A stretch of DNA of 64,000 nucleotides from an uncultured Acidobacteriota bacterium (lineage in GTDB: Bacteria; Acidobacteriota; UBA6911; RPQK01): positions 1,308,976 through 1,372,975 of the forward strand of contig CAVUUN010000014.1 of NCBI GenBank assembly GCA_963744645.1. Reading direction: 5' to 3'. Both the position numbers and the translations under genes were made by a program. Below are positions 3,077-52,392 of the stretch, piece after piece (the stretch's first letter is position 1; each line of letters begins with the position of its first letter). The notes beneath the pieces are model-generated. The model saw only the letters and a program-made list of their open reading frames with translations. It searched no databases and was not told the origin of the DNA.

Positions 3077-3221
3077 GTGAATATCCAATTCGCCGTCCCA
3101 GAGTGTACGCGCTTTTCGCACCGTATTTAAGGGCGGAGATGAAAGACGTTATCCACGAAGGACGAAGAGAGACAAACGCCATCCATACCACCCTGCCTTT
3201 ATTCGTGTCCGTTCGTCACAA

Positions 3222-3393
3222 CCCGCTTACTCCGCTAAAAAGCGCTGTGTGACGGCTCTGACAATGCTCGACAGGACGGTTGGCTTCTATGGCTTCTTAG
3301 AAGGATGGAGCGAGTGCAAGAACGGGGAACCGCGCCCGGTGCGAGGTATTGTCAGAGCCGCGCACGCAGCGCTTTTCAGCGGAGTAAGCGGGT
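3222..3393. repeat. Family A palindromic repeat element: inverted 42-bp arms CCCGCTTACTCCGCTAAAAAGCGCTGTGTGACGGCTCTGACA / TGTCAGAGCCGCGCACGCAGCGCTTTTCAGCGGAGTAAGCGGG flanking a spacer of about 90 bp.
   Basis: Near-perfect inverted repeat read directly from the sequence. Closely related copies are at 10670..10827, 41163..41319 and 63723..63825, with partial copies at 10941..10979 and 19875..19936. Confidence 0.85.
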
Positions 3394-3502
3394 GGTCACA
3401 GCCGGCATACCCCCGTGCCCTTGACTATTGCAGCGCGATACGTCTTTCGTCTGTATGGAATTCGGGTCTAGACTGTATGGATCAAACAGGAGGATGGTTC
3501 TC

Positions 3503-4612: not shown

Positions 4613-4630
4613 AGGTAGAAGGAATTTCGG

Positions 4631-4744
4631 GGACACGAAACTTATTTCGGGGACATAACACTTAATTCCCAACCCGCTACCGGTGCTCTCTCCGGTTGCA
4701 AGGGAATTAAGTCTTGTGTCCCCGAAATTTCCCGAATGATGGAG
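4631..4744. repeat. Family B hairpin element: TTTCGGGGACATAACACTTAATTCCC, a loop of about 31 nt, then GGGAATTAAGTCTTGTGTCCCCGAAAT. It lies immediately upstream of the M16 start codon.
   Basis: Inverted repeat read from the sequence. The same element is at 23521..23867 (3 tandem units), 38193..38457 (2 units) and 50081..50193. Confidence 0.85.
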
Positions 4745-4749
4745 GAGGC

Positions 4750-6120
4750 ATGAAACGATTCTTTGTTGCGGCGTTTCTCTTGTGCATGGGAACCCTCTGG
4801 GCGCAAAACGCTCCTGTCAAGGTTCCCTACACCCGGTTCACGCTCCCCAATGGACTCACTGTAATTCTGCATGAGGATCACTCGGTGCCGCTGGTGAGTG
4901 TGAACACTTACTACCATGTCGGATCAGGACGTGAGAAGCCCGGGCGGACTGGCTTCGCACATCTCTTCGAACACCTGATGTTCGAGGGGTCCGCTAACGT
5001 CCCGGAAGGCAAGTTCGACGAATGGCTCGAGGCGGCCGGCGGTGACAACAACGGCTCGACGAATTCGGATCGCACCAACTACTGGATGGATGTCCCGCGC
5101 AACTCAATCGAGCTCCCCCTGTTTCTTGAATCCGACCGCATGGCCTACCTCTTGAAGACTATGACGGCGGCCACCGTGAACGGACAGCGGGACGTCGTCA
5201 AGAACGAGAGACGCCAGTCGTACGAAAACCGCCCGTACGGCATGTCCTCGATTCTCCTCTCCGAAAACCTGTACCCCGCTGATCATCCGTACCACTGGCC
5301 GACGATCGGCTCCATGGAAGACCTGTCGGCGGCGAGCTTCGAAGATGTCGTCGAGTTCTTCAAGCGGTACTACGGGCCCAACAACGCCAGCCTCGTGATC
5401 GGCGGCGATATCGACCCGGCCAAGACCCGGGCGGTGGTGACGAAGTGGTTCTCGGAAATTCCCGCCGGACCGCCGGTCCCGGCGTTTTTCGCGACTCCCC
5501 CGCGGCTGGCCGAAGAGAAACGCCTGCTGCTGGAGGACAAGGTCCAGTTGCCCCGTGTGTATATGGCATGGCTGACACCCGCCGCCTTCGCTCCGGGTGA
5601 TGCCGAGCTGGATGTGCTGGCCAGCGTGCTTGCCTCCGGAAAGAACTCCCGGCTCTATAAGCGTCTCGTCTACGAACTTCAGATCGCGCAGGACGTGGCC
5701 GCTTATCAGGCGACCGGGCAGCTTGGTTCCAGCTTCCGAATTATCGCGACGGCCCGCGCCGGCCACACTCTGTCTGAGTTGGAAGCGATCATCCAGGAAG
5801 AAATCGATCGCCTCAAGAAAGAGCCGCCCTCTTCGCGGGAGGTGGAACGCGTCGTCAATCAGATCGAAGCCGATTTTCTGTCGCGGATGGAACGGGTCGG
5901 GGGCTTCGGGGGCAAGGCCGATCAACTCAATTACTACTATACGGTCACCGGAAATCCGGACTATTTCAACGAGGATCTCGGCCGCTACAAGGCGCTCGCG
6001 CCCGAAGACGTAGCGAACGCGGCCCAGACCTATCTGCCCAACAATGCCCGGGTGATTCTGAGCGTTGTTCCCACCGGCAGGAAGGAACTGAGCGCAATGT
6101 CGGGAAAGGAGCAGAAGTAA
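4750..6120 (+). CDS. M16 family zinc metallopeptidase (active, HLFEH motif), secreted.
   Basis: RBS GGAGGAGG, a signal peptide, HLFEH, a downstream E and an NERRQ motif, and full-length two-domain M16 architecture. Confidence 0.9.
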   Translation: MKRFFVAAFLLCMGTLWAQNAPVKVPYTRFTLPNGLTVILHEDHSVPLVSVNTYYHVGSGREKPGRTGFAHLFEHLMFEGSANVPEGKFDEWLEAAGGDNNGSTNSDRTNYWMDVPRNSIELPLFLESDRMAYLLKTMTAATVNGQRDVVKNERRQSYENRPYGMSSILLSENLYPADHPYHWPTIGSMEDLSAASFEDVVEFFKRYYGPNNASLVIGGDIDPAKTRAVVTKWFSEIPAGPPVPAFFATPPRLAEEKRLLLEDKVQLPRVYMAWLTPAAFAPGDAELDVLASVLASGKNSRLYKRLVYELQIAQDVAAYQATGQLGSSFRIIATARAGHTLSELEAIIQEEIDRLKKEPPSSREVERVVNQIEADFLSRMERVGGFGGKADQLNYYYTVTGNPDYFNEDLGRYKALAPEDVANAAQTYLPNNARVILSVVPTGRKELSAMSGKEQK

Positions 6121-6122
6121 CC

Positions 6123-7625
6123 ATGCTGACCCAATCGGAAATCAGACAAACCTCGGGCCGGAGACTCATGTCCTGCTCCTTGCTTCTTCTGGCGCTCATC
6201 GCTCTGACCGGCTCAATTTCAGCCCAGGCGTCGCCTCCGGACCGCACGCACCCTCCGTCCCCTGAATCGCCCGCCGCGCTGAAACTCCCGGCTATCGAGC
6301 ATCTGAAGCTCTCTAACGGGCTTCAGGTGATCCTGCTCGAAAAGCACGAGGTCCCGGTCGTTTACCTCAATCTGCTTGTTTCAGGGGGTCGCGCCCTTGA
6401 CCCACAGGGAAAGATCGGGCTTGCTCAGCTGACCGCCAGCATGATGACCGAGGGCGCAGGGAGCCGGGACGCGCTTCAACTAGCCGACGCGATTGATTTT
6501 CTGGGCGCGCAGATTTCTGCTTCGGCCATGGCTCACACTTTTTCCGTCAGTCTTTACGTGCCCGTCGCAAAACTGACCGAGGCCCTGCCTCTACTGTCGG
6601 ACGTGGCCCTCCATCCAACTTTCTCGAGCGAGGAACTGGAACGCAAACGCGCGCAACAACTCACGCGACTCTTGCAGGCCCGGGACAATCCACCGTCAGT
6701 CGCGTCCGTTCTTTTTGGGCACACTCTTTACGGGCTCTCGCATCCCTACGGCGCCTCGGTTTTTGGAGATGAAGCAACTATCCGGTCGTTCACAGTCGGC
6801 GACCTGAAAAAGCTGCACTCCTCGGCCTTTCAGCCGGAGAGCTCCACCTTGATCGTGGTCGGAGCGGTCAAACCGAACGATCTCGTGCCCAGTCTGGAAA
6901 AGGCTTTCGGTCAGTGGAAGCCGGGCGCAGCACCTTCCCCGCAAATGCCTGAGGCTAAGCAAGTCCCGGAACGGGCGATCTTCTTGGCCGACAAGCCTGG
7001 AGCGGCGCAGTCCGAGATCCGGGTTGGCCGGATAGGCGTCCCTCGCCTGACCGATGACTACTTCAACCTGGTGGTGCTGAACAGCATCCTGGGCGGCTCA
7101 TTCACGTCGCGTCTGAATAACAACCTGCGCGAGCAGCATGGTTACACCTACGGGGCAGGATCGCGGTTCGACTTCAATGTGCTCGCAGGTCCGTTCACTA
7201 TCGCTACCGCGGTGCAGACCGCGGTGACGGACAAGGCTCTGGCCGAAATCCTGAAGGAACTGGAAGCTATCCGCAAACCTATCCCCGCGGACGAACTGGA
7301 GCGAGGCAAGAACTACACGGCTCTGCGATTCCCTTCCCGTTTTCAGTCCGTTGGCGACATCGCCGACGAGCTCGAAGAGCTGGTGCTCTTCCGCCTGCCC
7401 GACAGTTATTTCAACGACTATGTCGGCCGGATTCTCGCGGTCACGCAATCCGACGTCCAGAAGGCTGCCGAGAAGTACCTCGACCCGGCGAAGGTCGCAA
7501 TCATCATCGTTGGAGATCGGGAAAAGATCGAAGCACCTTTGCGGGCACTGAACGTCGGTCCCATCAAACTTCTGACGATCGACGACGTGATGGGCAAGGC
7601 ACCGGAGCTGGCGAAGACGCAGTAG
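6123..7625 (+). CDS. M16 family peptidase, non-catalytic partner subunit (no HxxEH), secreted.
   Basis: Start codon overlaps or abuts the upstream M16 gene. It has a signal peptide and M16 N- and C-domains but lacks zinc ligands, which is the typical M16B heterodimer arrangement. Confidence 0.85.
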   Translation: MLTQSEIRQTSGRRLMSCSLLLLALIALTGSISAQASPPDRTHPPSPESPAALKLPAIEHLKLSNGLQVILLEKHEVPVVYLNLLVSGGRALDPQGKIGLAQLTASMMTEGAGSRDALQLADAIDFLGAQISASAMAHTFSVSLYVPVAKLTEALPLLSDVALHPTFSSEELERKRAQQLTRLLQARDNPPSVASVLFGHTLYGLSHPYGASVFGDEATIRSFTVGDLKKLHSSAFQPESSTLIVVGAVKPNDLVPSLEKAFGQWKPGAAPSPQMPEAKQVPERAIFLADKPGAAQSEIRVGRIGVPRLTDDYFNLVVLNSILGGSFTSRLNNNLREQHGYTYGAGSRFDFNVLAGPFTIATAVQTAVTDKALAEILKELEAIRKPIPADELERGKNYTALRFPSRFQSVGDIADELEELVLFRLPDSYFNDYVGRILAVTQSDVQKAAEKYLDPAKVAIIIVGDREKIEAPLRALNVGPIKLLTIDDVMGKAPELAKTQ

Positions 7626-7635
7626 AGGGCAGGAA

Positions 7636-7819
7636 ATGGACAGAGTGGACAAAGTGGACAGATAGGACAAATCGCAGCCACCAGGTCCTATTCGTCCACC
7701 TTGTCCACTCTGTCCACCTTGTCCACTCGGCTTTTCGGCTCAGTTGTCAGTTGTCAGTTGTCAGTCGTCAGTTGTCAGTCGTCAGTTGTCAGTTGTCAGT
7801 CGTCAGTTGTCAGTCGTCG
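7636..7819. terminator. Palindrome (TGGACAGAGTGGACAAAGTGGACAGATAGGAC ... GTCCTATTCGTCCACCTTGTCCACTCTGTCCA) followed by a tandem heptamer array (GTTGTCA/GTCGTCA, about 11 units), between convergent genes.
   Basis: Perfect stem of about 32 bp plus heptanucleotide tandem repeats read from the sequence, located between the M16 (+) end and the ada (-) end. Confidence 0.6.
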
Positions 7820-8986: not shown

Positions 8987-10328
8987 CTACTCTGCCACGA
9001 CCTTTGCCTTCAAGCCCGCGGGCTTGGACGGTGAGGCGGTCTCGACGAGCCGCGCGGCCTGAACGCGGCCGACTCCGCGGAACTCAAGTGCGCCCATATC
9101 CCGAAACGAGCCGGTGATCGCCGCCGCGTCATAATCCGTCACGGCATATGGATCCGCGCTCGCTGTGTCGACCGCCGAGCAAGCTGGTGACCAGGTGGAA
9201 ATCTCCCACAGCCGGGTTGCTGAACATCGAGGCGACGGCCGCCGCCTGCGAAATATTCCCCTCGAGGTCGATTCCAATGTTGTTCTTCACCACCAGCAAT
9301 GCCGGGTCGAGCGTGCCCACCGCGTGATTGACGAGGTTATAGAACGTATTGTTGTAGATTTCGCTTGGCGGGTGTTCGCCCGGGCTCCAGGTCTTGGACC
9401 AATCCTTCATCCGGATGGCGAACTCGCCTTTTCCGACCCCGTCGTAGACTACGTTGTTGAAGATCCGGTGGCCGGCTTCCGGTTCGACAACGAAAGCCGC
9501 TATGCCGCATTGATTGTTGAACAGGCGATTGTTGAAGACGAAGTTCGAATGGCCGTCGATGGTGATCGTTCCATCGTTGCCCCTCTCTGGATCGCCTCCA
9601 TATTCGGCCCATCGCACCTGGTTGTGGAAGACATTACTGTGGACTCTGATGTTGTGGCTGTACTTCTTGGTTTCCACGGCGTTCTCGGTGAATCCCCGAG
9701 CGATGTTACCGCAGATCTCGAGGTTGTAAACCGCCTGCTCGGGCTTGGTCTTGTTCCCGAGGTAGAACGCCTCACCCCAGAATTCCTGCCGGCCGGTGTT
9801 CTCGATAACGCTGTCGCGCACAATGACATCGTGTTCGCCGGAGGTGATGCTTACGCCCGCGGCTCGAACATCCATGATGTGGATGTGCTCGACAATCACA
9901 TCGTGGACAGGCTCGGGCAGCGAGACCTCTTCACCCGCCCCGATTCGCACTGCGCCTCGGTTTCCTCCCGTCCCAACGCCGTCAAACCTGATGTCCTGAA
10001 GGGTCACATAACTCGCCCAGACCCTCGCGAGCCGTTCATTGGGCACCCGGACGACCGCCTTCCACCGGTTGGCAGCACGCACCACAACTGGCGCCTGTGC
10101 GGCTCCCCCTTTCACTACGAACAGCGGTTCAGTGTAAATACCATCCAGGAGGATGACCTGATCTCCCGGTCCGGGCTTTGACAAACCGGTCGCGAGGGCG
10201 CACGGCGAGGCCGAACTGCAGTCTGTGCCCGAACCGGCGGGGGAAACGTAAAAACTTTCGGATAAGGCCGGGCTGATGAACCAGAAAGAAATCAATGTCA
10301 ACGGTAAAGCTGATGACATGGATATCAC
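8987..10328 (-). CDS. Secreted right-handed beta-helix (pectate-lyase-like) protein with an apparent frameshift near 9165-9175.
   Basis: Signal peptide and repeated beta-helix NxxG-like motifs. The C-terminal GDFHL...AVDTASADPYAVTDYDAAAITGSFRDMGALEF consensus is only recovered by switching frame from ORF 9129..10328 to ORF 8987..9277. Confidence 0.7.
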
Positions 10329-10669
10329 GTGTTACTCCTTGCGCGCTGCAGAGCGCCCGCACGAGCGCGGGCAGCGCATGTCTATTAGTGTATTTGTGCT
10401 AACGGTCGGCTTTATAACACACGCGTATAGCGGAGTAAACGAGCAAGTCGGAACGGGGGAGAGGGACAAAGGGGGTAAAGAGCAAGGGAGCGACGCGGTT
10501 CTTTCAAGGCCGCGCACAGCAGCGTTGCCTTTTCAGAGTCACACGCAGCGAGGGTGTTGAATAAGAGTCGGCGGGTTTTCAGTGGCGACGAATAGACACA
10601 AGGGCGTAAAGCCGCTGGCTCGACGGACCTCTGTGGAGCTATGGCAAGAGCCGGCCGAAGCCGAGTGGT

Positions 10670-10827
10670 GTCAGAGCCGCGCGCGAGCGCTTTCCAGCGT
10701 AGCAAGCGGGTTCAAACAGGGAGCGATCGCATGGTCCCCCTCCAGCGCCAGTGCCAACGGGCATGCGATCAGCCGGCTGTTCCAACCCGCTTGCTACGCT
10801 GAAAAGCGCTCGCGCGCGGCTCTGACA
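10670..10827. repeat. Family A palindromic repeat element (copy 2), plus a partial arm at 10941..10979.
   Basis: Arms GTCAGAGCCGCGCGCGAGCGCTTTCCAGCGTAGCAAGCGGG / CCCGCTTGCTACGCTGAAAAGCGCTCGCGCGCGGCTCTGACA. Confidence 0.85.
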
Positions 10828-11004
10828 CCGCTCGGTCGGCCGGTGTCCCCTGCCAGGCGCCTCAGAAAGACCACGCGTTTACATTTCTGTGACTTTCCGT
10901 AAGCTCGAGGGAATTCAAGACCTTATTCGACAGCCTCGCTGCGTGTGACAAAGGCACCGCTACGTGCGCGGCTCTGACAAGACAACCTTGCCCCCCTCGC
11001 TTCG

Positions 11005-20838: not shown

Positions 20839-21078
20839 GGGTTGCACGGGGGGCTGGGTTAGACGGTTCAGGGTTTGGGGGTTTGGGGGTTTGGAGGGTT
20901 CAGGGTTCAGGGTTCAGGGTTCGGGGTTCGGGGTTCGGGGTTGAGGAATTCAGTGTTCAGAAGTCAAGGAGTTCGGGGGTTCAGGTCTAACCGTCCAACC
21001 GTCTAACCGTCTAACCGTCTAACCGTCCAGCCCCCGAACTCAGAACTCAGAACTTCAGAACTCAGAACTTCGAGCTGT
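20838..21078. terminator. Imperfect 240-bp palindrome built from heptamer repeats (GGTTCAG/GGTTCGG ... CTAACCG ... GAACTCA), between convergent genes.
   Basis: Read from the sequence between the response regulator (+) end and the RRM gene (-) end. Confidence 0.55.
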
Positions 21079-21079
21079 C

Positions 21080-21391
21080 CTACCAGCGAGGCGGTCGCTT
21101 GCCGCCGTTAAAATTGCGTCCACCACCACCGCCGCCGCCCCGATTGCTGTTCTCACGCGGGCGAGCTTCGCTGACGGTCAGGCTGCGGCCGTCAATTTCC
21201 TTGCCGTTGAACTGTTGAATCGCCTTTTCGCCATCTTCGCGCGAGGCCATCTCGACAAATCCGAAGCCGCGTGAACGGCCGGTGTCGCGGTCCGTGACCA
21301 GCGATGCAGACTCCACGGTCCCGACCTGCGAAAAGAGCTCCTGAAGATTCGCGTCGGAGGTCTGATACGACAGGTTTCCGACATAGAGTTT
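21080..21391 (-). CDS. RRM-type RNA-binding protein with a glycine-rich C-terminal tail.
   Basis: RNP2 (KLYVGNL) and RNP1 (RGFGFVEM) motifs with an RGG/Gly-rich tail. The start is MKLYV or MTMKLYV. Confidence 0.85.
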   Translation of the reverse strand, partial: KLYVGNLSYQTSDANLQELFSQVGTVESASLVTDRDTGRSRGFGFVEMASREDGEKAIQQFNGKEIDGRSLTVSEARPRENSNRGGGGGGGRNFNGGKRPPRW

Positions 21392-21654
21392 CATGGTCAT
21401 ACTGTTTGTTTCTCTCCAATAAAGGAGCAAAGGAGAAGCTTTCACGAATCTGCTTCGGAGTCATTGGCGACGAAGGAGACGGTCTGAGTAGCTTCTGATT
21501 TTCGTTTTACCCTACTCTCGCCCTGACGCAGCCGCCAATTCCAACGCACGGGGATAAACGATAGTGAGAGTCGGACTGATTTGAGTATACCGAGCCGGTA
21601 TACGGAGTACAAGCAACATTGGCTCGATCCGGCGGCCGAACGGGCCGCCCCTGG

Positions 21655-23301: not shown

Positions 23302-23520
23302 GACTAACCAGCAGTGCGCGCCCAGAGGCCCGGAAGGCGTGTATTCCGAACCTTAAGAACGCCCGGAACTCCTGCCTCTTCTTCTCTCCGCAAAGCCCCT
23401 TAGGGATCACGTGGGAACAGCACGAGGAACTGTTCTGGGTGTCACGCGAAGAATACTGCAAAGAGACGGTTCTAGGCAAGCTGTACGACGAGCAGCCCGG
23501 CTAACAGGCTGACAGGAGGG

Positions 23521-23867
23521 GAATTTCGGGGACATGATACTCAATTCCCCCGCGCCTCCGGGGGGTGACAGTCGGCAAGGAATTGAGTTTCGTTTCCCCA
23601 AATTCCGCAAATTCGCGGTGAGACACCGAGAACGGAAGGGAGTCGCGTCGGAGTTTCGGGGACATGATACTCAATTCCCCCGCGCCTCCGGGCGGTGACA
23701 GTCGGCGAGGAATTGAGTTTCGTGTCCCCGAAATCCGCAAATTCGCGCTGTGAGACACCGAGAACGCAAGGGAGTCGCGTCGGAGTTTCGGGAGACAAAT
23801 ACTCAATTCCCTCGCACCCTTCGTGCACTCGCAGACCCAAAGGAATTGAGTTTACGTCCTCGAAACT
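23521..23867. repeat. Family B hairpin element in three tandem units (period about 122-133 bp), 220 bp upstream of radical SAM paralog 3.
   Basis: Units start at 23521, 23643 and 23776. Each contains TTTCGGGGACATGATACTCAATTCCC ... GGAATTGAGTTTCGT(G/T)TCCCCGAAAT. Confidence 0.85.
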
Positions 23868-27834: not shown

Positions 27835-28444
27835 GCAGACCGAGAACCGGTCCTCGATCTACGATTGGATTCTGGCCCGAACTGCAGTCCGGAGCCGCGT
27901 CCTCGACGTCGGCTGCGGCGATGGCGAGTTGCTGAGCCGCCTGGCGGAACAGCGCGAAGTCGAAGCCTGCGGCATCGAGATTTCACAGCAGTGTGTTATC
28001 CGGGCCGTTCAGCGAGGGCTGACGGTCCACCACGGGAACGCAGAAGAAGGACTCTACAACTACCCGGACAGCTCGTTCGATCTCGTAATCCTGAGCCTGG
28101 CAATGCAGGAACTGGAGCACCCGCGCAGCGTCCTTCGCGAGTGCTTTCGGGTGGGACGCCGAGCCCTTGTCGTATTCCCGGCCTTCGGTCATTGGAGAGC
28201 CCGCTGGCAACTCGGACTGCTCGGACGGGCGCCCGTGACCGGGAGCTTTCCCCACGCCTGGCACGAATCCCCCAATCGCCACTATCTGACCGTGAAGGAC
28301 TGGGAGTCTTTTTGTCGAGATGAACAGTGGCGTATCATCGATAGAGGGTTCTTGAGAACCGGCTCACCAGTCCGATTCCTACCCAACCTGCGCGCGGAAG
28401 TGGCGCTCTACCTCCTCGAATTCCGAGGAAACTCGGCAGGATAA
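27827..28444 (+). CDS. metW: Methionine biosynthesis protein MetW (SAM-methyltransferase-like).
   Basis: The ATG overlaps the metX stop and sits 8 nt after a GGAGG. VLDVGCGDGEL is a class I methyltransferase motif, and this is the classic metX-metW pair. Confidence 0.85.
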   Translation: MPEQTENRSSIYDWILARTAVRSRVLDVGCGDGELLSRLAEQREVEACGIEISQQCVIRAVQRGLTVHHGNAEEGLYNYPDSSFDLVILSLAMQELEHPRSVLRECFRVGRRALVVFPAFGHWRARWQLGLLGRAPVTGSFPHAWHESPNRHYLTVKDWESFCRDEQWRIIDRGFLRTGSPVRFLPNLRAEVALYLLEFRGNSAG

Positions 28445-28553
28445 TAGGATAGGACCTATAGGACCGATAGGACCGATAGGATCGGGGACCGGCTTTCGAG
28501 TCTTCTCCCATATGTCCTATTCGTCCTATACGTCCTATTCCTATTCCTGTTGC
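28443..28553. terminator. Palindrome of GATAGGAC-type repeats (ATAGGATAGGACCTATAGGACCGATAGGACCGATAGGATCGG ... TATGTCCTATTCGTCCTATACGTCCTATTCCTATTCCT).
   Basis: Read from the sequence between metW and the CBS gene. Confidence 0.55.
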
Positions 28554-31080: not shown

Positions 31081-31555
31081 GTGGGAGTTCGGAGTTCTGA
31101 GTTCGGAGTTCTGAGTTCTGAGAAGGTGTGAAAAAATCGGTTTTGCTTGCGAAGACTCGGTTTTCGACCCCAAGGGGGTCGCGTAGCAAAGCCCAGGGTT
31201 GGCCGCGTTGTCTGCGGCCTACCCTGGGTCGGGGACCCCAGAGTTCAACCCTGAAAGGGTTGCGTATCATGCACATACGCAACCCTTTCAGGGTTGAGGC
31301 GTTTGCTACTGCCACCCAGGGTAGGCCGCAGACAACGCGGCCAACCCTGGGCTTTGCTGCGCGACCCCCTTGGGGTCGAAAACCCGTCTTTCGATTTCTT
31401 CACACCTTCTGAGTCTGGGTTCTGAGTTCGGAGTTCTGAGTTCTGGGTTTGGGTGGGTTTGCGGCCAGGCAACTTACGCTTCCTAACCTTGACTGAGAAC
31501 ACTGAACGAATGGAACCCAACTCAGAACTCAGAACTCAGAACTTAGAACTGCGCT
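31081..31555. repeat. Complex repeat: GAGTTCT/GAGTTCG heptamer arrays flanking a near-perfect palindrome of about 240 bp that contains a nested inner hairpin.
   Basis: Outer arms of about 70 bp (GGTTTTCGACCCCAAGGGGGTCGCGTAGCAAAGCCCAGGGTTGGCCGCGTTGTCTGCGGCCTACCCTGGGT) with 1 mismatch. Inner hairpin AACCCTGAAAGGGTTGCGTAT ... ATACGCAACCCTTTCAGGGTT. Inverted CAGAACT arrays lie at 31510..31550. Confidence 0.8.
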
Positions 31556-31646: not shown

Positions 31647-32708
31647 TTGGGGTGTCATCACATGAAACGAACTGAGGAAGGCCGGCACCGATTCCTGGCA
31701 GTCGAAATCCCGAGTGTCCTGCTCACCGTATTCTGCTTCTTCGCCTGCATTGTTGCGGCCCTTGCCCAGGTGCGAAGTGAGCCGCCTCGGCCCCGCTTCG
31801 GTGATTCAACGTTTTCGATCGAGGGGTCGGTCGTGGATGCGAAGGGTCGACCGGTTCAGCACGCCCGCCTGGTCCTGAATGTATTCGGCACCGAGGGGCA
31901 ACGCACCGATTTCTCGGACACAGACGGTCGGTTTATCTTCCGGAGACTTCCTGAAGGCAGCTACACCATGGACGTTTCCGCAGGCGGCTTCCAGTCAACC
32001 AAAGAGGAGATCCAGCTGGTCAGCGTCTCTCGCACGATCCGCATTGTCCTTACGCCTGGTGAGCGGTCCGAAGAGCGCCACCAGGGAGGGACCGAGAGTG
32101 TTTCGGCCGCGTCGTTACGGGTACCCAAGGAAGCCGAGAAGCTCTACAGGAAGGCCCTTCGTTCTCACACGGAAAAGCGCTATGACGAAGCCTTGAAGGA
32201 GTTCGACGAGGCGCTGAAGATAGCTCCGGACTTCGCGCGCGCCTACGCCGGCCGGGGCATTACACTGCTTCAAATGCAAAATCGGGCGGAAGCCAGAATC
32301 GCCTTCGAGAAGGCGGTTCGGCTCGATCCGGAATCCTTCGATGCTCAAGTGGGGCTGGGACTTGTCCTCAACGACTTGCGCGAGTTCCAAGCTTCGACCG
32401 AACACCTGTTGAAGGCACGGTCACTGAACAGCGCCGGGTGGCAGGTGCATTACGAGCTCGGGCGCGCGTACTTCGCCCTGGCAGACTACCCGGAAGCCGA
32501 AGCCAGCCTGAGGACCGCCCGGGCTTCCTCGCCCCATTATCCCGGCCTCTACCTGTTGCTTTCCAATCTTTATCTGAAGACCAACAGGCCGGCCGACGCG
32601 GTGAACGAGCTGCAGGGTTTCCTTAAGATGTTTCCTGACGGGCCAATGGCCGAACAGGTCCAGAAGAGAATCAAGTTGATCGGAGAGCGTGAGGCAACTG
32701 CGCACTGA
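31647..32708 (+). CDS. Secreted protein with a carboxypeptidase-regulatory-like (transthyretin-like) domain plus TPR repeats.
   Basis: N-terminal TM/signal segment, a CarbopepD_reg-like beta-sandwich (GSVVDAKGRPVQHARLVL...DGRFIFRRLPEGSY) and at least 4 TPR-like repeats. The true start may be 31662. Confidence 0.75.
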   Translation: MGCHHMKRTEEGRHRFLAVEIPSVLLTVFCFFACIVAALAQVRSEPPRPRFGDSTFSIEGSVVDAKGRPVQHARLVLNVFGTEGQRTDFSDTDGRFIFRRLPEGSYTMDVSAGGFQSTKEEIQLVSVSRTIRIVLTPGERSEERHQGGTESVSAASLRVPKEAEKLYRKALRSHTEKRYDEALKEFDEALKIAPDFARAYAGRGITLLQMQNRAEARIAFEKAVRLDPESFDAQVGLGLVLNDLREFQASTEHLLKARSLNSAGWQVHYELGRAYFALADYPEAEASLRTARASSPHYPGLYLLLSNLYLKTNRPADAVNELQGFLKMFPDGPMAEQVQKRIKLIGEREATAH

Positions 32709-32862
32709 CGACTGCGAACTGCTCACTACCCGCTGCGCACTGCGCACTACCCGGCTGACCGGCTGACCATTTGATCAGCCAGTGGGCGGTGGGCAGTTCG
32801 CAGTGCGCAGTGCGCAGTTCGTCAGTGCGCAGTGCGCAGCGGGCAGTTGTCAGTTGCTTTTG
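32709..32862. terminator. Palindrome of GCGCACT/CTGACCG heptamer repeats between convergent genes.
   Basis: ACTGCGCACTGCGCACTACCCGGCTGACCGGCTGACC ... GGTGGGCAGTTCGCAGTGCGCAGTGCGCAGT. Confidence 0.55.
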
Positions 32863-35842: not shown

Positions 35843-38221
35843 ATGACCGATCAGGAACCGGGCAGACCCACTCGCATCCTTCCTGCTCTTCCGATCGATC
35901 CTCGCCTCCCGGAGATCGTGTCCGTCCTACGGAAATATCGTCGTGCGGTGCTCGTTGCCCCGCCGGGCGCAGGCAAGACGACTCGTGTGGCGCCCGCCCT
36001 GATCGAAGAAGGACCCGTCATCCTCCTCCAGCCGCGCCGGGTGGCGGCCCGGTCAATAGCCGCGCGGATTGCGTCAGAACAGGGCTGGGAGATCGGTCGC
36101 GAGGTTGGCTGGCAAGTGCGATTTGAAAGACGGTTCGGACGCGAAACTCGACTACTCGTTTGCACCGAGGGCATCCTCACGAATCGTCTCCAGGCGGATC
36201 CTCTCCTGACCGGTTTCCGGACGGCGATCCTCGACGAGTTCCACGAGCGGAGTGTGCACGCCGATGTTGCACTCGCGCTCATGCGGGAAGCCGTGCGCGC
36301 CCGCGACGACCTGCAGCTTCTGGTGATGTCTGCCACCCTTGATGCCCGGGCGGTGTCCGATTACCTCGACGGCTGCCCGATGATCGAAGTCGAGGGACGA
36401 GCTCACCCGGTCGAGATCGGGTACGCTCCTCACACGTTTCCACAGTCAGCCATCACCGAGAGACTTGATCAGCCCGGAGGCCACATCCTTTGTTTTCTGC
36501 CCGGGGCGGGAGAGATCTCCAGGCTTGGCGAAGACCTGCGTGCCCGTGCCCGGCCCGGGGTGGCGATTCTTCCTCTTCATGGGACGCTCGAGGCGGCGGC
36601 GCAGGACCGGGCGCTGGCACCTTCTCGTGAACGGAAGGTCATCCTTGCCACGAATATCGCCGAAACTTCCTTGACCGTCGAAGGCGTCACCGATGTGATC
36701 GATACCGGCCTCCACAAGGTCCTTCGCTATGATTCACGCCGGGGAATCGACAGTCTGGAGCTTGAACGCATTCCGGCTGATTCAGCCGAACAGCGTGCCG
36801 GACGAGCTGGTAGGCTCGGACCCGGCCGCGCGCTCAGACTCTGGGATCCTCGGGAACGGCTCCGGCCGCATCGTGAAGCCGACATCCGGCGTATCGACCT
36901 GGCGGCGCCTTTCCTGGATGTGATTGCCTGGGGGGGAGACCCGCTCTCCCTTGACTGGTACGAGGCTCCGGCAAGGGAACGAGCAGAGTCCGCACTGGAA
37001 CTGCTCGATCGACTTGGCCTGGTCCGGGACGGGCGGCTGACCCCGCTCGGGGACATCGCGCACCGCCTGCCCCTCCATCCCAGGCTCGCCTGCATCCTCG
37101 TAAGTGCCGGAGGATCCCGGCGGGCCGCCGCAGTATGTGCCCTGCTCTCCGAGCGAGGACAATCCCACCCCGCTTTGCACGCGACCGATTCGGACATCCT
37201 GACCCTTGCAGATGAAATCGACATCGCGCCACCTCCTGTGCGCAACGTCGCGCTCGAAATCGAGCGGGTGGGCCGGTCGCTTCTCGGGCGCGGCGTCAAG
37301 ACCGACCCGTCAGAGGAAAGCCTGCTGAGAAGCATTCTGGCGGGTTTCCCTGACCGCGTGGCCCAGCGCCGGGAGCCCCGCTCTGCCCGCCTGCTCCTGG
37401 CGAGCGGGCATGGAGCGAGGCTGACCGCGGACAGCGGCGTCTGGGACGGGGAATACCTGGTCGCCCTTGACGTGATCGGAAGCGAAGCACGGGGCGTCAG
37501 CGAGGCGCTGGTTCGCCAGGCCAGCCGGATCGAGAAGCAATGGCTCCGGCCGACGTGCGTGGAAGTGAGGCACTGGTTCGATCCCGAAACCCGGGCAGTT
37601 AAGGCGGTCGAGCAAGTTCGTTACATGGCGCTCCTTCTGGCCGAACGTCCTGTCCCTCCCCATCCCGACGAATCCATCGACTTGCTCCTTGGAGCGTGGG
37701 CAAAAGAGCCGTTGGACGAGGCGTCCCGCACACTCGTTGCCCGGGCCCGAATGGCCGGCGTTTCGATTGACATGGAGGCGGCCAGGCGGGCCGCATGCGC
37801 GGGACGCGTGTCCCTTCCGCGGCTCGACCTGCATCTCAGTCTCAGTCACGCAGAGCGCCAGCTCCTGGATCGCCTCTGCCCCGAGTCGGTGCGGGTGCCG
37901 AGCGGCCGATCGATTCGACTCGAGTACGGGGATGACGGGATCGTCCGCCTCTCGGTTAAGCTTCAGGAACTGTTCGGGCTGGAGGAGGGGCCGCGTGTGG
38001 GACGCAACCAGGAACCGGTCCTGATCCATTTGCTCGCTCCCAACGGCCGGCCGGTCCAAACAACCACCGACCTGCGCAGTTTCTGGCAACGAACTTACCC
38101 GGAAGTGCGCAGAGAGTTGCGCGGACGGTATCCCAAACACCCTTGGCCGGAAGACCCGGCAGGCGCCGAGCCAACCGCCCGAGTGAAGAAGCGAGTTTCG
38201 GGGAGAGTTTCGGGGACATAA
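35843..38221 (+). CDS. hrpB: ATP-dependent RNA helicase HrpB (DEAH-box).
   Basis: Walker A APPGAGKTT, DEFHER, SATL, a helicase C domain, and the HA2 and HrpB C-terminal regions. The ORF-track entry 34619..38221 is extended upstream by antisense read-through of the preceding gene. Confidence 0.9.
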   Translation: MTDQEPGRPTRILPALPIDPRLPEIVSVLRKYRRAVLVAPPGAGKTTRVAPALIEEGPVILLQPRRVAARSIAARIASEQGWEIGREVGWQVRFERRFGRETRLLVCTEGILTNRLQADPLLTGFRTAILDEFHERSVHADVALALMREAVRARDDLQLLVMSATLDARAVSDYLDGCPMIEVEGRAHPVEIGYAPHTFPQSAITERLDQPGGHILCFLPGAGEISRLGEDLRARARPGVAILPLHGTLEAAAQDRALAPSRERKVILATNIAETSLTVEGVTDVIDTGLHKVLRYDSRRGIDSLELERIPADSAEQRAGRAGRLGPGRALRLWDPRERLRPHREADIRRIDLAAPFLDVIAWGGDPLSLDWYEAPARERAESALELLDRLGLVRDGRLTPLGDIAHRLPLHPRLACILVSAGGSRRAAAVCALLSERGQSHPALHATDSDILTLADEIDIAPPPVRNVALEIERVGRSLLGRGVKTDPSEESLLRSILAGFPDRVAQRREPRSARLLLASGHGARLTADSGVWDGEYLVALDVIGSEARGVSEALVRQASRIEKQWLRPTCVEVRHWFDPETRAVKAVEQVRYMALLLAERPVPPHPDESIDLLLGAWAKEPLDEASRTLVARARMAGVSIDMEAARRAACAGRVSLPRLDLHLSLSHAERQLLDRLCPESVRVPSGRSIRLEYGDDGIVRLSVKLQELFGLEEGPRVGRNQEPVLIHLLAPNGRPVQTTTDLRSFWQRTYPEVRRELRGRYPKHPWPEDPAGAEPTARVKKRVSGRVSGT

Positions 38222-38457
38222 ACTTAATTCCCGTGAACCTGCGGCAGCAGGTGAACGCTTTGGGAATTAAGTATTGTGTCCCCGAAACTCTCCCGAAACC
38301 CCCGAAAGTCGGGAAGCTTCGGTCGCCGGTGGTATATTGCTGCAGCCCTGCAAGGGAATGTCGGGGGAATGTCGGGGACACAAAACTTAATTCCTTTGCA
38401 AGCTCCTAACTTGATGGAAACGGTTTGGGAATTAAGTATTATGTCCCCGAGATTCCC
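38193..38457. repeat. Family B hairpin element in two tandem units, immediately upstream of the 38488 start codon.
   Basis: GAGTTTCGGGGACATAAACTTAATTCCC ... GGGAATTAAGTATTGTGTCCCCGAAAC, and a second unit ending GGAATTAAGTATTATGTCCCCGAGATTCCCC. Confidence 0.85.
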
Positions 38458-38487
38458 CTGAATCTCAGCAACAACGGAGGTCATTTG

Positions 38488-39494: not shown

Positions 39495-39590
39495 GACGGG
39501 CCCGCGGATTTACGCGGATCTGCGCGGATAATCGCGGATTAAGGCAGCGTCCTCTTTGTTCGCTGCCTTAATCCGCGATTATCCGCGCAG
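39495..39590. terminator. Near-perfect 42-bp-stem palindrome of CGCGGAT repeats; bidirectional terminator between convergent genes.
   Basis: CCCGCGGATCTGCGCGGATAATCGCGGATTAAGGCAGCG, a loop, then its inverse. It is followed by T-runs on both strands. Confidence 0.75.
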
Positions 39591-39607
39591 ATCCGCGGGC
39601 CGCTTTC

Positions 39608-40992: not shown

Positions 40993-41162
40993 GCATAGCA
41001 TTCCACAAGAACCGCCGAGACGGGGAGATGATACAGTCTCCGGGCTCCGGGCACAATCTCTGGATCGACCCGGGTGGATGCGTCCTTCCGAGTGCGCAAG
41101 CTTGCTCGCGCTTTATACGGATCTTGGGATTCCGGTGGGCATGCACCTGCTTTCGGTTCGAA

Positions 41163-41319
41163 CCCGCTTGCTTCGCGGAAAGACGCTCGCGCGCGGCTCT
41201 GATGGGACTCGGCGAACACCGCGCAACCGCTCAGGCTCTATCGTAATACGAGTCATAGCAGGCGACACCGAGTCGTGTGTCAGAGCCGCGCGCGAGTGCT
41301 TTCCAGCGAAGCAAGCGGG
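41163..41319. repeat. Family A palindromic repeat element (copy 4).
   Basis: Arms CCCGCTTGCTTCGCGGAAAGACGCTCGCGCGCGGCTCTGA / GTCAGAGCCGCGCGCGAGTGCTTTCCAGCGAAGCAAGCGGG. Confidence 0.85.
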
Positions 41320-41529
41320 TTCGAACCGAAAGCAAAATTGCATACCCTAAGGTGTCTAACATGCATATAAGCAGAGCAAGGTTGCGCGCTCCAAGGCTCG
41401 CTTCGCTCGCAAACTTTCCTTGGGGCACTTTTCCGCTCACTTTTTCAACACCCCCTTGGGGGACGATTCTCGCGGTCCCTCCTGACAACTGACTTCGACT
41501 GCTGTATAAGAGAATCTTCAGGAGCGAAC

Positions 41530-47320: not shown

Positions 47321-47330
47321 GAAAGAAAAC

Positions 47331-47450
47331 CGGCCCGCGGATCTACGCGGATCTACGCGGATAATCGCGGATAAAGGCAGCCGACGTTTCATCGGCTGCC
47401 TTTATCCGCGATTATCCGCGTAGATCCGCGTAGATCCGCGGGCCGGTTCC
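47331..47450. terminator. Perfect stem palindrome of about 50 bp made of CGCGGAT heptamers; bidirectional terminator.
   Basis: CCGGCCCGCGGATCTACGCGGATCTACGCGGATAATCGCGGATAAAGGCAGCCGA, a loop, then its inverse. It lies between convergent glpC and DUF1080 genes and is the same heptamer family as 39495..39590. Confidence 0.75.
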
Positions 47451-47469
47451 AGAGCGGCAGACAACCACC

Positions 47470-48295: not shown

Positions 48296-48424
48296 CACTG
48301 ACAACTGACAACTGCCCGACTGGCAACCCTGACCGAAAAGCGCCCCCGTGCTCAGCCGTCGTGGGCAGTGCGCGGTCAGTGGTGGTCAGTCGCGTCAGTC
48401 GTCAGTGGTCAGTCGTCAGTCAAC
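48296..48424. terminator. Palindromic heptamer array (CTGACAA ... GTCAGTG/GTCGTCA) downstream of pgm.
   Basis: CACTGACAACTGACAACTGCCCGACTGG ... CAGTGGTCAGTCGTCAGTCA. Confidence 0.5.
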
Positions 48425-50080: not shown

Positions 50081-50193
50081 ATTTCGGGGACTCGACGATT
50101 TCGGGGACATAATACTTAATTCCCACCCCGTAACCACCGAACTCCGCGTGAGCAAAGGAATTAAGTATTATGTCCCCGAAATGCCCGAAATTG
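50081..50193. repeat. Family B hairpin element immediately upstream of the pgm start codon.
   Basis: ATTTCGGGGACATAATACTTAATTCCC, a loop, then GGAATTAAGTATTATGTCCCCGAAAT. Confidence 0.85.
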
Positions 50194-50238
50194 TGCCCGC
50201 TGCCTTCTGCCCGCCGCCCGCTGATTTCTGCCCGCTCT

Positions 50239-51627
50239 CTAGCTGCCCCCTGCCGGCTGCCCGCTGCCCGCTGATTTGGGGGCCAGCAGGCGAGCCAGCA
50301 GGAAGGCCATCTCCATCGCCTGTTCGTAGTTCAAGCGCGGGTCGACGTGAGTGCGGTAATCGCGCTGGAGATCCGCCTCGGTGATGCCGCTCGCCCCGCC
50401 CAGGCACTCAGTCACGTTCTCGCCGGTCAGCTCGAAGTGGACTCCGCCCAGGTGCGCTCCACACTCCTTCAGGATGAGACAGGACTGCTCGAGCTCGGAA
50501 ATGATCCGCTCAAAACGCCTGGTCTTCACGCCCCCCGAGGTCATCTCCGTATTCCCGTGCATCGGGTCGCAGCACCAGAGGACCTTCTTTCCGGCTCGCT
50601 CCACTGTCTCGACGAGGGGCGGCAGGCGGTCACCCACCTTGTCCGCTCCCATCCGGTGGATGAAGGTCAGACGGCCCGGCTCGTTGGTCGGGTTCAGAAC
50701 CGAACACAGGCAGATTGCCTCTTCGGGCGTGACGCCCGGCCCGATCTTGACGCCTATGGGGTTCGCGATTCCGCGGAAATACTCGACGTGAGCGCCGTCG
50801 ACATTTCGCGTCCGTTCGCCGATCCAGGGGAAATGAGTGGAGAGGTTGTACCAGCCCGGCCGGCGGGGCACCTGTCGTGTCTGGGCCTGTTCGTAGTAGA
50901 GGTGGAGTCCTTCGTGACTGGTAAAGAAGTCGACCCGGTTGATGTCGGAGGCATTGTGTCCGGTGAGCGTTTCCATGAAACGAAGCGACTCGCCGATCGA
51001 CTGCACAGTGCGCATGTACTCATTGGCCAGCGGGGATTTCGACACAAATCCGAGATCCCAATACTCGGGATGGTGAAGGTCCGCGAAACCGCCGTCGACC
51101 AGGGCGCGAATGAAATTTATCGTCAGGGCTGCCCGTCCCTGGGCCTTCACGAGCAGCTCAGGATTTGGCTCGCGGTCCTCGGGCCGGAATGCCGGCCGAT
51201 TCACCATGTCACCCCGGTAGCAAGGCAGGGTCACGCCGCCCCGGGTCTCCGTATCCGCCGATCGAGGCTTGGCGTACTGACCGGCAAAGCGTCCGACGCG
51301 GATCACCCTTCTTCTTCCTCCCTGGACCAGAACCAGGCTCATCTGGAGGAGGATCTTCAGCTTACGAGTAATCGCGCTCGGCTCGCAGTCTTCAAAACTC
51401 TCGGAGCAATCCCCTCCCTGGAGCATGAAGCGCTCACCTGCGGCCGCTTCCGCCAGCTGTGACTTCAGCTTCTCGATCTCCCAACTGGTGACAAGCGGAG
51501 GGAGTTTGGCTAACTGGAGAAGCGCGGTCTGCAGCGCAGCCTGATCCTTATATTTGGGTTGTTGCGTCGCCGGTCGACTCTGCCAGGATGTCGGTGTCCA
51601 GGTGGAACCTGGTTGGATTGGGTCCAT
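50239..51627 (-). CDS. 3-deoxy-7-phosphoheptulonate (DAHP) synthase, class II.
   Basis: AroAII family ([14 protein letters not shown], cysteine motif). An alternative start is at 51672. The last ~12 residues ([13 protein letters not shown]) are read out of a CTGCCCG heptamer array (50200..50283) and may not be real. Confidence 0.85.
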
Positions 51628-51754
51628 CTCTTTATGCCACCTGCTTTCGAAAGCAGCTAAGAATGGGAGCATAGGACAAGAAGGCGGCCGACCTCAAGCA
51701 GCACGGCTTTTTTCTGTCACTGCCTCGCTTCAAAACGATGTTATTGTGTGGAGC

Positions 51755-52024
51755 ATGGATCACAAGCGCTTCGATGACAGGAGACCACCCGGATGGAAAC
51801 CGGTCAGGCGGCCGGTCCCGGAGGAGTCCACGCAGGAAGAGGTGAAATACATCAAGTACCTGATCGAGAATCAGGTCCCGGTCTGCGTGAAACTCACGGA
51901 CAACCAGGAAGTGACCGGGGTCATCGAGTACTACGATCAATCGTTCATCCGGGTAACGAGGCAGAGCCAGCCCAACCTTTTCATTTTCAAGCAGCAGATC
52001 AAGTATCTCTACGAGATCAAGTAG
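51755..52024 (+). CDS. Small Sm-like / Hfq-family RNA-binding protein (89 aa).
   Basis: EVKYIKYLIENQVPVCVKLTDNQEVTGVIEYYDQSFIRVTR...NLFIFKQQIKYLYEI matches the Hfq Sm1/Sm2 spacing pattern (F..L......V.V.L.NG..L.G.I..FD.F.I.L.......YKHAI). The call is based on sequence pattern only. Confidence 0.5.
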   Translation: MDHKRFDDRRPPGWKPVRRPVPEESTQEEVKYIKYLIENQVPVCVKLTDNQEVTGVIEYYDQSFIRVTRQSQPNLFIFKQQIKYLYEIK

Positions 52025-52392
52025 ATCCTGACCGGCTCACCAGCTGACCGGCTGACCAGATCGTTGCGCACTGCGCGCTTCGCACTGCGCACTTCAACTG
52101 GGCTAAGGGACGACCAGTCGGCGAGGTCAGAAGGGTGGGGGAGGTATGTAGTACCGGCTTCAGCCGGTCGAACCGTCGGCAATCTCGATTGTCCGAGCGC
52201 CGAACTCGGGCACGAGCTGGCTTGCGGCGGTACTACGAACCTCGTCAGTCCGTCAGCTCGTCAGCCTCTCAGCCGGTCAGCCGGTCAGCCGGTTAGTGGT
52301 CAGTCGTCAGTAGTTTAGTCGTCAGTGGTCAGCCGGTCAGCTCGGTTAGCCGGTCAGCTCGTCAGCCGGTCAGCCGGTCAGTCGTCAGTGTT
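52025..52392. terminator. Two palindromic heptamer-repeat blocks (CTGACCGG / GCGCACT / CGTCAGT families) between convergent genes.
   Basis: 52025..52100 shares the CTGACCGGCTGACC and GCGCACTGCGCAC modules with 32709..32862. 52236..52392 contains GTCAGCC/GTCAGTC arrays. Confidence 0.5.

Follow-up and report, generated by a model that had tools for sequence, protein, structure and literature searches.

Hypervariable 7-10 nt tandem repeats and predicted hairpins at gene 3' ends in an uncultured Acidobacteriota bacterium

Short-unit tandem arrays at ten intergenic loci

We analyzed a stretch of 64,000 nt of contig CAVUUN010000014.1 (hereafter, the window), assigned to an uncultured bacterium of soil or sediment, probably of the Acidobacteriota, in which head-to-tail arrays of short DNA units adjoin the stop codons of ordinary housekeeping and metabolic genes. 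A first-pass annotation had described ten such loci, here lettered A to J, as long near-perfect palindromes built from tandem heptamers. Tandem Repeats Finder (TRF), together with an inverted-repeat scan of the window, detected short-unit tandem arrays at all ten intergenic loci. The earlier observation is thus partly confirmed and its interpretation partly supported, although the description was loose in the respects given below. The features of the loci are listed here; where two fold z-scores are given, they refer to the two strands.

Locus A1, 7637-7728: hairpin of 9-nt units of the TGGACAGAG and GTCCACCTT types with a GGAC/GTCC core (TRF period 9/18).
Locus A2, 7740-7818: direct heptamers TCAGTTG/TCAGTCG, 11.3 copies, no inverted partner (TRF period 7, 90% matches, score 130).
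Locus B, 20844-21075: on the left, G-rich 7- and 8-mers (GGGTTCA, GGGGTTC, GGGTTTGG); on the right, GTCTAACC (5.4 copies) and GAACTCA (4.7 copies).
Locus C, 28443-28548: 9-mer hairpin, GATAGGACC (3.8 copies) facing GTCCTATNC (3 copies); z -5.2/-5.9.
Locus D, left outer array, 31084-31122: GAGTTCT/GAGTTCG, 5.6 copies (TRF); partner at 31519-31553 (33 nt, 91%).
Locus D, nested element, 31123-31406 (about 284 nt): palindrome with 71-nt arms, 99% complementary; not a short-unit array.
Locus D, inner part, 31407-31550: GAGTTCT array at 31407-31449 and inverted partner AACTCAG (4.6 copies) at 31519-31550 (TRF, inverted-repeat scan).
Locus E, 32696-32855: mosaic hairpin, ACTGCGC/ACTGACG heptamers and CTGACCGG octamers facing CAGTGCG/GTCAG; z -7.3/-9.2.
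Locus F, 39499-39601: palindrome of CGCGGATNNN 10-mers with perfect 37-nt arms; z -12.8.
Locus G, 47328-47448: palindrome of CGCGGATNNN 10-mers with perfect 57-nt arms and a 7-nt loop; z -22.4.
Locus H, 48297-48421: ACTGACA heptamers facing GTCAGTCG/GTCAGTGG units, in a co-directional gap (both genes on the minus strand); z -5.5/-5.8.
Locus I, 50194-50273: degenerate direct array of CTGCCCG, 11 copies (TRF 64-70% matches), no hairpin; z +0.7/+1.1.
Locus J, left arm, 52028-52095: CTGACCGG (3.8 copies), then GCGCACT (4.1 copies), starting 3 nt past the stop codon of an Hfq-like gene.
Locus J, right arm, 52244-52393: GTCAGCCG/GTCAGTCG, 17.6 copies (TRF, inverted-repeat scan).

The units had been described as heptanucleotides, and seven is indeed the commonest period, but periods of 8, 9 and 10 nt also occur (13, 5, 4 and 5 TRF rows at the loci for periods 7 to 10, respectively). 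The CGCGGAT elements at F and G repeat every 10 nt, and the GGAC-core arrays at 7637-7728 and 28448-28548 every 9 nt. By both TRF and a periodicity scan, the arrays have the make-up of long simple-sequence repeats, with head-to-tail units of 5-11 nt extending beyond chance length. Strictly periodic bases amount to 429 nt of the window, compared with 0-19 nt in 10 Markov shuffles, and 91% of them are non-coding, whereas the window itself is 82% coding. Its GC content is about 60% throughout.

Inverted arms are found at nine of the ten loci. RNA folding of both strands against dinucleotide shuffles yielded clear long hairpins at eight of the ten, with z from -4.7 to -22 on both strands. The term palindrome does not suit every locus: locus B is weaker, and two arrays are direct only (7740-7818 and 50194-50273). 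What had been read at 7636-7819 as one GTTGTCA/GTCGTCA palindrome comprises the 9-mer hairpin A1, whose 32-nt arms (7637-7668 and 7685-7716) are 91% complementary (z -8.2), and the separate direct heptamer array A2. The supposed CTGCCCG palindrome at 50200-50283 is the degenerate direct array of locus I. At 31081-31555 the GAGTTCT arrays are paired as proposed, except that the palindrome holds the nested non-array element, which splits the GAGTTCT array and is dispersed and MITE-like (resembling miniature inverted-repeat transposable elements). Locus B forms an imperfect, asymmetric, G-U-dependent hairpin (z -3.4 on the plus strand, -1.8 on the minus strand); owing to its G-U pairs, the plus-strand RNA folds much better than the minus-strand RNA, with minimum free energies of -95.0 and -62.0 kcal/mol. 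At 20865-20942 on the plus strand, this locus has at least 12 consecutive G-tracts (GGGTTCA, GGGGTTC, GGGGGTTT) with telomere-like spacing and strong predicted G-quadruplex potential.

The cores CTGAC/GTCAG, GGAC/GTCC and CGCGGAT recur among the units. Unit dimers are confined to the array loci, with none elsewhere in the window, and 15 pairs of loci share 10-mers (A-C, A-E, A-H, A-J2, B-D1, B-D2, D1-D2, E-H, E-I, E-J1, E-J2, F-G, F-J1, H-J2 and J1-J2); the claim that modules are shared between loci therefore holds. Loci F and G are paralogous and have non-repetitive inner (AAGGCAGC) and outer (GGCCCGCGG) segments in common. Across the whole window, the Rfam 15 covariance models gave no match at gathering score, and a scan for tRNA and tmRNA genes found none.

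Arrays adjoin stop codons and avoid divergent gaps

Genes were mapped by codon usage and checked with Pfam. Arrays occupy six of the seven convergent gaps that have any space and four of about 16 co-directional gaps, and none of the eight divergent ones; they are confined to the 3' ends of genes and excluded from divergent, promoter-containing gaps. The proposed placement at convergent junctions is accordingly right for six of the ten loci, the other four being co-directional.

Arrays start 0-21 nt from stop codons, and at seven of the 16 flanked gene ends the stop lies inside the array (7803-7805, 28442-28444, 32706-32708, 32850-32852, 48420-48422, 50239-50241 and 52385-52387). As a result, the C-terminal residues of the Ada, TPR, FGE-sulfatase, PGM and DAHP synthase proteins, among others, are encoded by repeat units. 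For example, the stop codon of the Ada/Ogt gene (minus strand, identified by Pfam) lies inside A2, those of both convergent genes lie inside the arrays of locus E (32706-32708 on the plus strand, 32850-32852 on the minus strand), that of PGM lies inside the right arm of locus H, and that of a convergent gene of the 3-keto-disaccharide hydrolase family lies in the right arm of locus J. The last ~11 codons of the DAHP synthase open reading frame (ORF) run into locus I. Elsewhere, A1 starts 11 nt past the stop codon of an M16 peptidase gene, the left outer array of locus D 3 nt past that of a Cys_Met_Meta_PP gene, and locus B fills the convergent gap that separates the gene of an OmpR-type regulator from that of an RRM protein. 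Locus C begins at the metW stop codon, in the co-directional gap ahead of cbs, and lies 32 nt upstream of the probable cbs start; the two neighbors are functionally related, and in relatives the cluster normally closes with metW.

We also considered whether the gene-proximal arms are selected to carry stops in all frames. Sense stop triplets number 2.5 per 45 nt in these arms and 1.08 in other 3' flanks (p ~0.02), and the sense-antisense comparison gives p ~0.05. We note this trend without claiming selection: it is weak, the arms do not count as independent cases, and locus B runs counter to it.

Whole units come and go between near-identical strains

An exact look-up of the M16 peptidase returned no match. 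A DUF1080 protein of the window is 100% identical to a protein on a 508-kb contig in ENA (ERZ25039545:contig_42689), and the corresponding stretch, L207, matches positions 37479-58021 of the window at 98.7-99.2% identity. Since 60 of the 86 coding substitutions fall at codon position 3, L207 represents a genuinely distinct strain rather than a noisy copy. The 20.5-kb alignment contains 109 difference events, of which only six span 4 nt or more, all in repeats: of the five array loci in the alignment, four account for five events, and the sixth is the insertion of a MITE-like element. Arrays make up 3.8% of the aligned length, yet contain 19 of the 107 substitutions.

At locus F, the right arm of L207 is longer by 10 nt, exactly one unit, and a T>A change at 39540 has its mirror image in an A>T change at 39570, exactly symmetric about the hairpin center. 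Locus H is longer in L207 by about 12-13 nt of units and shows a cluster of substitutions, with unit types changed coordinately in both arms, and locus J is longer by 36 nt (4.5 octamers). When F and G of both strains were aligned and the alignment was folded into 51 pairs, four pairs varied; all four were compensated on both sides and none was broken by substitution, which demonstrates that the two hairpin arms co-evolve. Between almost identical strains, then, whole units are added to and removed from arrays, the pattern that replication slippage or unequal exchange would produce, and the arms change together, through mirrored or compensated substitutions and through unit types swapped in both arms. 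These changes fit the mechanism suggested in the first-pass annotation, slippage plus palindromization. The F/G pairing is perfectly Watson-Crick, with no G-U intermediates, an outcome that DNA-level copying explains no less well than does RNA-level selection.

The loop of locus G (47385-47391) has been rewritten: it is an asymmetric 7-nt loop in the window, and in L207 the element is palindromic down to a 1-nt center, about 123 nt in total. Perfect palindromes of ~123 nt are poorly tolerated in Escherichia coli, owing to SbcCD-dependent palindrome instability. The palindrome in L207 hints at a different handling of palindromes in this lineage.

The two assemblies also differ by single-base indels within genes, at 42574 and 45994, as well as at 40023, 48188, 50085, 53220, 55067, 56843 and 56923. 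The FGGY kinase is split in the window (365 aa, versus 504 aa in L207), and two GlpA/GlpC-like ORFs that are separate in L207 (989 and 416 aa) form a single 1420-aa ORF in the window. These indels are either long-read consensus errors or real frameshifts.

Unit families turn over at fixed junctions in more distant relatives

Named relatives by protein are Vicinamibacteria (78%) and entries labeled 'Acidobacteria bacterium' (62-81%), which makes the assignment to this phylum probable rather than certain. The comparison across related genomes that had been proposed as a check on unit expansion and contraction shows copy numbers that differ from the window in L207 and in L213. After metW, L213 (94% protein identity) shares the TAGGACC 9-mers and the loop with the window but not the copy numbers, and L216 (78%) has CACGAATTA arms around a loop of nine direct GAAGTCA heptamers; at 3265-3385 of L216, the arms have an 11-nt period of the CACGAATTACA type. 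After the DUF6807 gene, L081 (89%) carries CTGACNGG octamers and GTCCACNNN 9-mers in place of the CGCGGAT units of the window, and plain hairpins are found in L206 and L082, whose identity is 74% at the nucleotide level and 82% and 78% at the protein level. Near the DUF1080 hydrolase, the relatives L208 and L209 (92%) bear either CCAGCTGA and GTCTCCNN units, or plain hairpins, or a further copy of the element nested in locus D. A plain 33-bp hairpin stands at this hydrolase in L218 (87%), which has an ATTGACG/AATCGTC heptamer palindrome at another convergent gap. Overall, a hairpin and its position are kept at most junctions of the relatives, L214 being an exception, and what changes is the family of units and the number of copies.

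Several of the compared junctions are synteny breakpoints. Among L213, L214, L216, L212 and L218, relatives at 78-94% identity, gene order shifts exactly at array-bearing junctions (28445-28549 and 47321-47469). In the window metW is followed by cbs, and in relatives by unrelated convergent genes; the neighbors of the DUF1080 hydrolase differ in L212 and L218.

The terminator signature is largely wanting

The first-pass annotation had proposed that the arrays probably act as bidirectional intrinsic terminators. Most loci do not combine a GC-rich stem-loop with a following U-tract, as rho-independent terminators do. A terminator scan called only F (plus strand) and G (minus strand), the only loci with a T-rich tail, each in one direction. 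Sites with a hairpin followed by a T-run numbered 17, 12 and 26 in three 20-kb segments, compared with 19.4, 18.2 and 17.0 (s.d. 3.9) in shuffles, amounting to no enrichment in two segments and a modest one in the third. As a test of RNA-level selection, the strand asymmetry of fold energies showed no consistent direction among the loci. A terminator role of the hairpins is plausible, but the canonical signature of bidirectional terminators is not there.

The architecture recurs in other phyla

For comparison, we assembled a control set of 1.3 Mb of unrelated loci from a genome-contig search with the Cys_Met_Meta_PP protein; among the matches listed, relatives had at most 59% identity and there were no orthologous junctions. 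Array density is 3.3 per 10 kb in the window, 0.82 on average in the controls, and 4-10 in metagenome-assembled genomes (MAGs) of Saprospiraceae. In the latter, loci found by chance in Saprospiraceae/Haliscomenobacter MAGs (L025 at 6088-6200 and 9982-10120, L014 and L023) contain inverted heptamer arrays (GTGAGTC/GACTCAC, CGTGAAT/ATTCACG) that start at the stops of convergent genes; the architecture of the window recurs here in another phylum. On the unrelated contig L140 (11 kb, with a similar GC content), 11 arrays of the same unit repertoire directly follow gene ends, and CTGCCCG is paired there with its complement. A metagenome scan with GTCAGCNGGTCAGCNGGTCAGC was discarded as a guide to distribution: its 120 matches spanned GC contents of 0.40-0.77, many in long frames of high-GC organisms, and only contigs of ~0.6 GC (L140 and Ga0105092) were informative.

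The nearest precedent is found in Xanthomonas, where GGGAATC heptamers form ~185 arrays per genome, ~90% of them intergenic and on average 28 nt past the upstream ORF, with 70-75 convergent inverted pairs per genome that have stem-loop potential and an under-representation between divergent ORFs (Rehm et al. 2015, PMC4692102). Their length and sequence vary extensively between close species and their function is unknown; the same study describes intergenic GGGGA(C/T)T heptamer repeats in Nostoc (PMC4692102). The window arrays are likewise intergenic, close to the upstream stop and absent from divergent gaps, with same-unit arrays on opposite strands in convergent orientation, and locus B is G-rich and predicted to be G-quadruplex-prone, as in Xanthomonas and Nostoc. 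Unlike the Xanthomonas repeats, G-tract units are restricted to locus B, the units CTGACCGG, GCGCACT, CGCGGATCTA, TAGGACC and GAGTTCT having none. Furthermore, one family dominates each Xanthomonas genome, whereas the window has at least eight, with periods of 7-10 nt mixed within one hairpin, stems of up to 57 perfect bp, and a host in another phylum (probably Acidobacteriota).

Long simple-sequence repeats with units of 5-11 nt, among which heptamers are commonest, were reported to be sporadically distributed and to originate by slippage (Mrazek et al. 2007, as summarized in PMC4679880 and PMC4692102). The window arrays resemble them in unit size, in the predominance of 7 nt and in the unit-step copy changes between strains at F, H and J. 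That group is a statistical class, and is not known to have been described as having palindromic mosaics, co-evolution of arms or abutment on stop codons. Arrays of TAACTGA and mixed heptamers, with 7-nt-step indels between strains, are known from Beggiatoaceae, cyanobacteria (Microcystis) and Bacteroidetes (MacGregor, PMC4679880); in Beggiatoaceae, most of the TAACTGA repeats are direct, and they sit a short distance ahead of start codons (PMC4679880), in contrast to the window arrays, which sit after stops. As in the Microcystis and Bacteroidetes arrays and in the short tandemly repeated repetitive (STRR) sequences of cyanobacteria (cited in PMC4692102), the window has several heptamer families that are intergenic and variable, yet structured. 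The STRR heptamers CCCCAGT, TTGGTCA and CAACAGT occur in heterocystous cyanobacteria such as Calothrix and Anabaena. None of the three is among the TRF consensus units of the window.

Repetitive extragenic palindromic (REP) sequences and the REPINs formed from them are extragenic palindromes in dispersed families, located at 3' ends and in convergent gaps and thought to act in termination or mRNA stabilization; REP units are imperfect palindromes of 20-40 nt that carry a GTAG or CGTC tag, and RAYT transposases mobilize them (PMC3733652, PMC3116915). The hairpins of the window share the extragenic, palindromic, 3'-end or convergent placement and the dispersed families. They differ in that their stems are direct repeats of non-palindromic 7- to 10-mers, with GTAG or CGTC inside some units rather than as terminal tags. 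No Pfam match to a RAYT or other transposase was found among the ~40 window proteins scanned, which represent 64 kb of the genome. Like rho-independent terminators, they place a GC-rich stem-loop directly past the stop, with T-rich tails at F (plus) and G (minus); unlike them, they have stems three to five times longer and mostly no U-tract. Array units are contiguous and 7-10 nt long, without the unique spacers and the 23- to 50-nt repeats of clustered regularly interspaced short palindromic repeats (CRISPR). We rejected CRISPR, REP and MITE identities for the arrays on the basis of unit size and the absence of spacers, tags, terminal inverted repeats and target-site duplications.

Given the Xanthomonas, MacGregor and Mrazek precedents and the Saprospiraceae loci, the architecture is of a known, recurrent and unexplained kind, and the construction is not unique to this lineage. 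For Acidobacteria, the literature searched yielded no description of repeats of this kind; this is the first such case found in this lineage, of an architecture that is itself already known.

Other repeats and genes of the window

MITE-like behavior is limited to the element nested in locus D and to a GGGGACA family, the arrays having neither terminal inverted repeats nor target-site duplications. Copies of the nested element (80% identity) occur at a different junction, after the DUF1080 hydrolase, at 1010-1233 of L209 and 5071-5190 of L208. The GGGGACA family has inverted arms of the ATTTCGGGGACATAATACTTAATTCC type and occurs at 4624-4668, 23520-23865 (in tandem, a 130-nt unit repeated 2.6 times), 38193-38461 and 50098-50182. 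L207 has an extra 169-nt copy at window position 50156, and since this strain is 99% identical, the family must have been mobile recently. A second dispersed palindrome family (TCAGAGCCGCGCGCGAGCGCTTTCCAGCG...GCGGGTTC), with arms of 37-59 nt that are 89-93% complementary, is found at 3215-3399, 10661-10835, 41148-41334 and 63723-63822; unlike the short-unit arrays, it occupies divergent or 5' gaps.

The genes of the window include those for M16 peptidases, Ada/Ogt, an OmpR-type regulator, an RRM protein, the metY-metX-metW cluster, cbs, cgl, an FGE-sulfatase, HrpB, a DUF6807 protein, GlpABC-like proteins, DUF1080 hydrolases, PGM, DAHP synthase and an Hfq-like protein. The RRM-domain gene (21080-21445) adjoins array B, and the Hfq-like gene (51746-52024) adjoins array J. 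Given how frequently arrays stand at gene ends, this is probably a coincidence.

Discussion

The explanation that we prefer, with a probability of roughly 0.6, is that hypervariable repeats of 7-10 nt have colonized, and now largely constitute, stem-loops located directly after stop codons. The ancestral state of each site would have been an ordinary transcript-end hairpin. Slippage would duplicate segments of the stem, and symmetry would be restored by copying from arm to arm within a strand (template switching in quasi-palindromes), by selection for pairing, or by both; together, duplication and restoration would ratchet stems up to 30-57 bp. Unit families may then spread among loci by recombination between arrays. 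The hairpins most likely still act on RNA, through termination and/or protection from 3' exonucleases, and their repetitive construction would be a mutational product, not a designed feature.

Several observations weigh against this explanation. The direct-only arrays at 7740-7818 and 50194-50273 and the loop of L216 imply that expansion does not require pairing, and the unit families common to non-orthologous loci are unexplained by in-place slippage alone. Many co-directional gaps have neither hairpin nor array, and neither an obvious hairpin nor an array follows metW in L214 (81% metW relative). Since single-base indels occur within genes of both assemblies, some unit-sized indels could be consensus errors, although the mirrored substitutions cannot. 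Termination is the weakest part of the explanation: T-tracts are limited to F (plus) and G (minus), canonical sites show no enrichment in two of the three segments and a modest one in the third, stems of 40-57 bp are far longer than a terminator would need, some arrays are direct only, and array C, 32 nt ahead of the probable cbs start, is in an awkward place for a strong terminator.

In a rival account, the arrays would be neutral or selfish repeats at the DNA level, with no role in RNA, accumulating where they do no harm, that is, after stops and especially in convergent gaps, and their palindromic symmetry would arise purely from DNA template switching or cruciform processing. The hypervariable length and unit turnover, the existence of direct-only arrays, the lack of a U-tract at most loci and the extension of arrays into ORF ends all agree with this account, as does the perfect Watson-Crick pairing of F and G, which DNA copying would predict more readily than selection at the RNA level. 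We nevertheless regard it as a minority possibility, as relatives without an array often keep a plain hairpin at the same junction, suggesting that the site has a conserved structural function that the arrays inherited, and as arrays fill all but one of the seven convergent gaps. A REP/REPIN- or MITE-like nature, with small mobile palindromes that a transposase encoded elsewhere inserts at gene 3' ends, is most credible for the F/G element, whose common inner and outer segments mark F and G as dispersed copies of one element. The recurrence of unit families at non-orthologous loci and in relatives, the coincidence of array junctions with synteny breakpoints and the presence in the same gaps of true MITE-like elements, including the 169-nt presence/absence polymorphism, point the same way. 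Mobility is nonetheless improbable: the arrays lack terminal inverted repeats and target-site duplications, each locus has its own mosaic of units, the units are not themselves palindromic as REPs are, strains differ by unit-sized indels in single arms rather than by gain or loss of whole elements, and no transposase family is found by Pfam among the ~40 window proteins.

A protein that binds the unit as its recognition element, such as an RRM, Hfq-like, CsrA/Csp-type or nucleoid protein, could in principle turn the arrays into multivalent sites on DNA or in mRNA 3' untranslated regions. The recurrence of conserved cores (CTGAC/GTCAG, GGAC/GTCC, CGCGGAT) is in keeping with this, and such a proposal was made for the TAACTGA repeats (PMC4679880), and the unit read as CAACTGA on the Ada sense strand is a single base away from TAACTGA; array B is flanked by an RRM gene and array J by an Hfq-like gene. 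However, at least eight unrelated unit families with four periods in 64 kb, and the replacement of the unit family at orthologous junctions of close relatives, make sequence-specific binding very improbable, and the proximity of the RRM and Hfq-like genes carries no information because arrays adjoin most gene ends. Least credible of all, and already refuted for the most part, are assembly or consensus artifacts of low-complexity reads, which the first-pass annotation had named as a potential refutation. Single-base gene indels between the window and L207 are typical of long-read consensus errors, but arrays of the same kind occur in independent assemblies of other samples (L207, L081, L208, L213, L140, L218), the architecture is repeated in independent assemblies of at least five other samples, apparently short-read to judge from contig sizes (L081, L208, L213, L216, L218, L140), and the strain differences include mirrored substitutions.

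A bolder and rather doubtful possibility is that the process is actively self-templating and not passive slippage, with palindromes that copy arm from arm, exchange modules, rebuild transcript-end structures and mark synteny breakpoints. If true, it would have had separate origins in the present Acidobacteriota clade, in Saprospiraceae, in Xanthomonas and in cyanobacteria, and would represent either an unrecognized general route of terminator evolution or a lineage-specific defect or enzyme of replication or repair.

The arrays are a practical hazard, as they break assemblies and cause stop codons and C-termini to be mis-called, and they would lend themselves to strain typing in this uncultured lineage. 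Intergenic repeats of short, predominantly heptameric units have been known, and unexplained, for decades, and the window adds a new phylum-level example with many unit families. The 99%-identical strain and the relatives at 78-94% make its dynamics readable, including the gain and loss of units, compensated changes in the arms and the replacement of a family at a fixed junction, and they show directly that arms evolve in concert and that units turn over. If the hairpins are indeed transcript ends, they would illustrate how terminator structures can be rapidly rebuilt while keeping their position.

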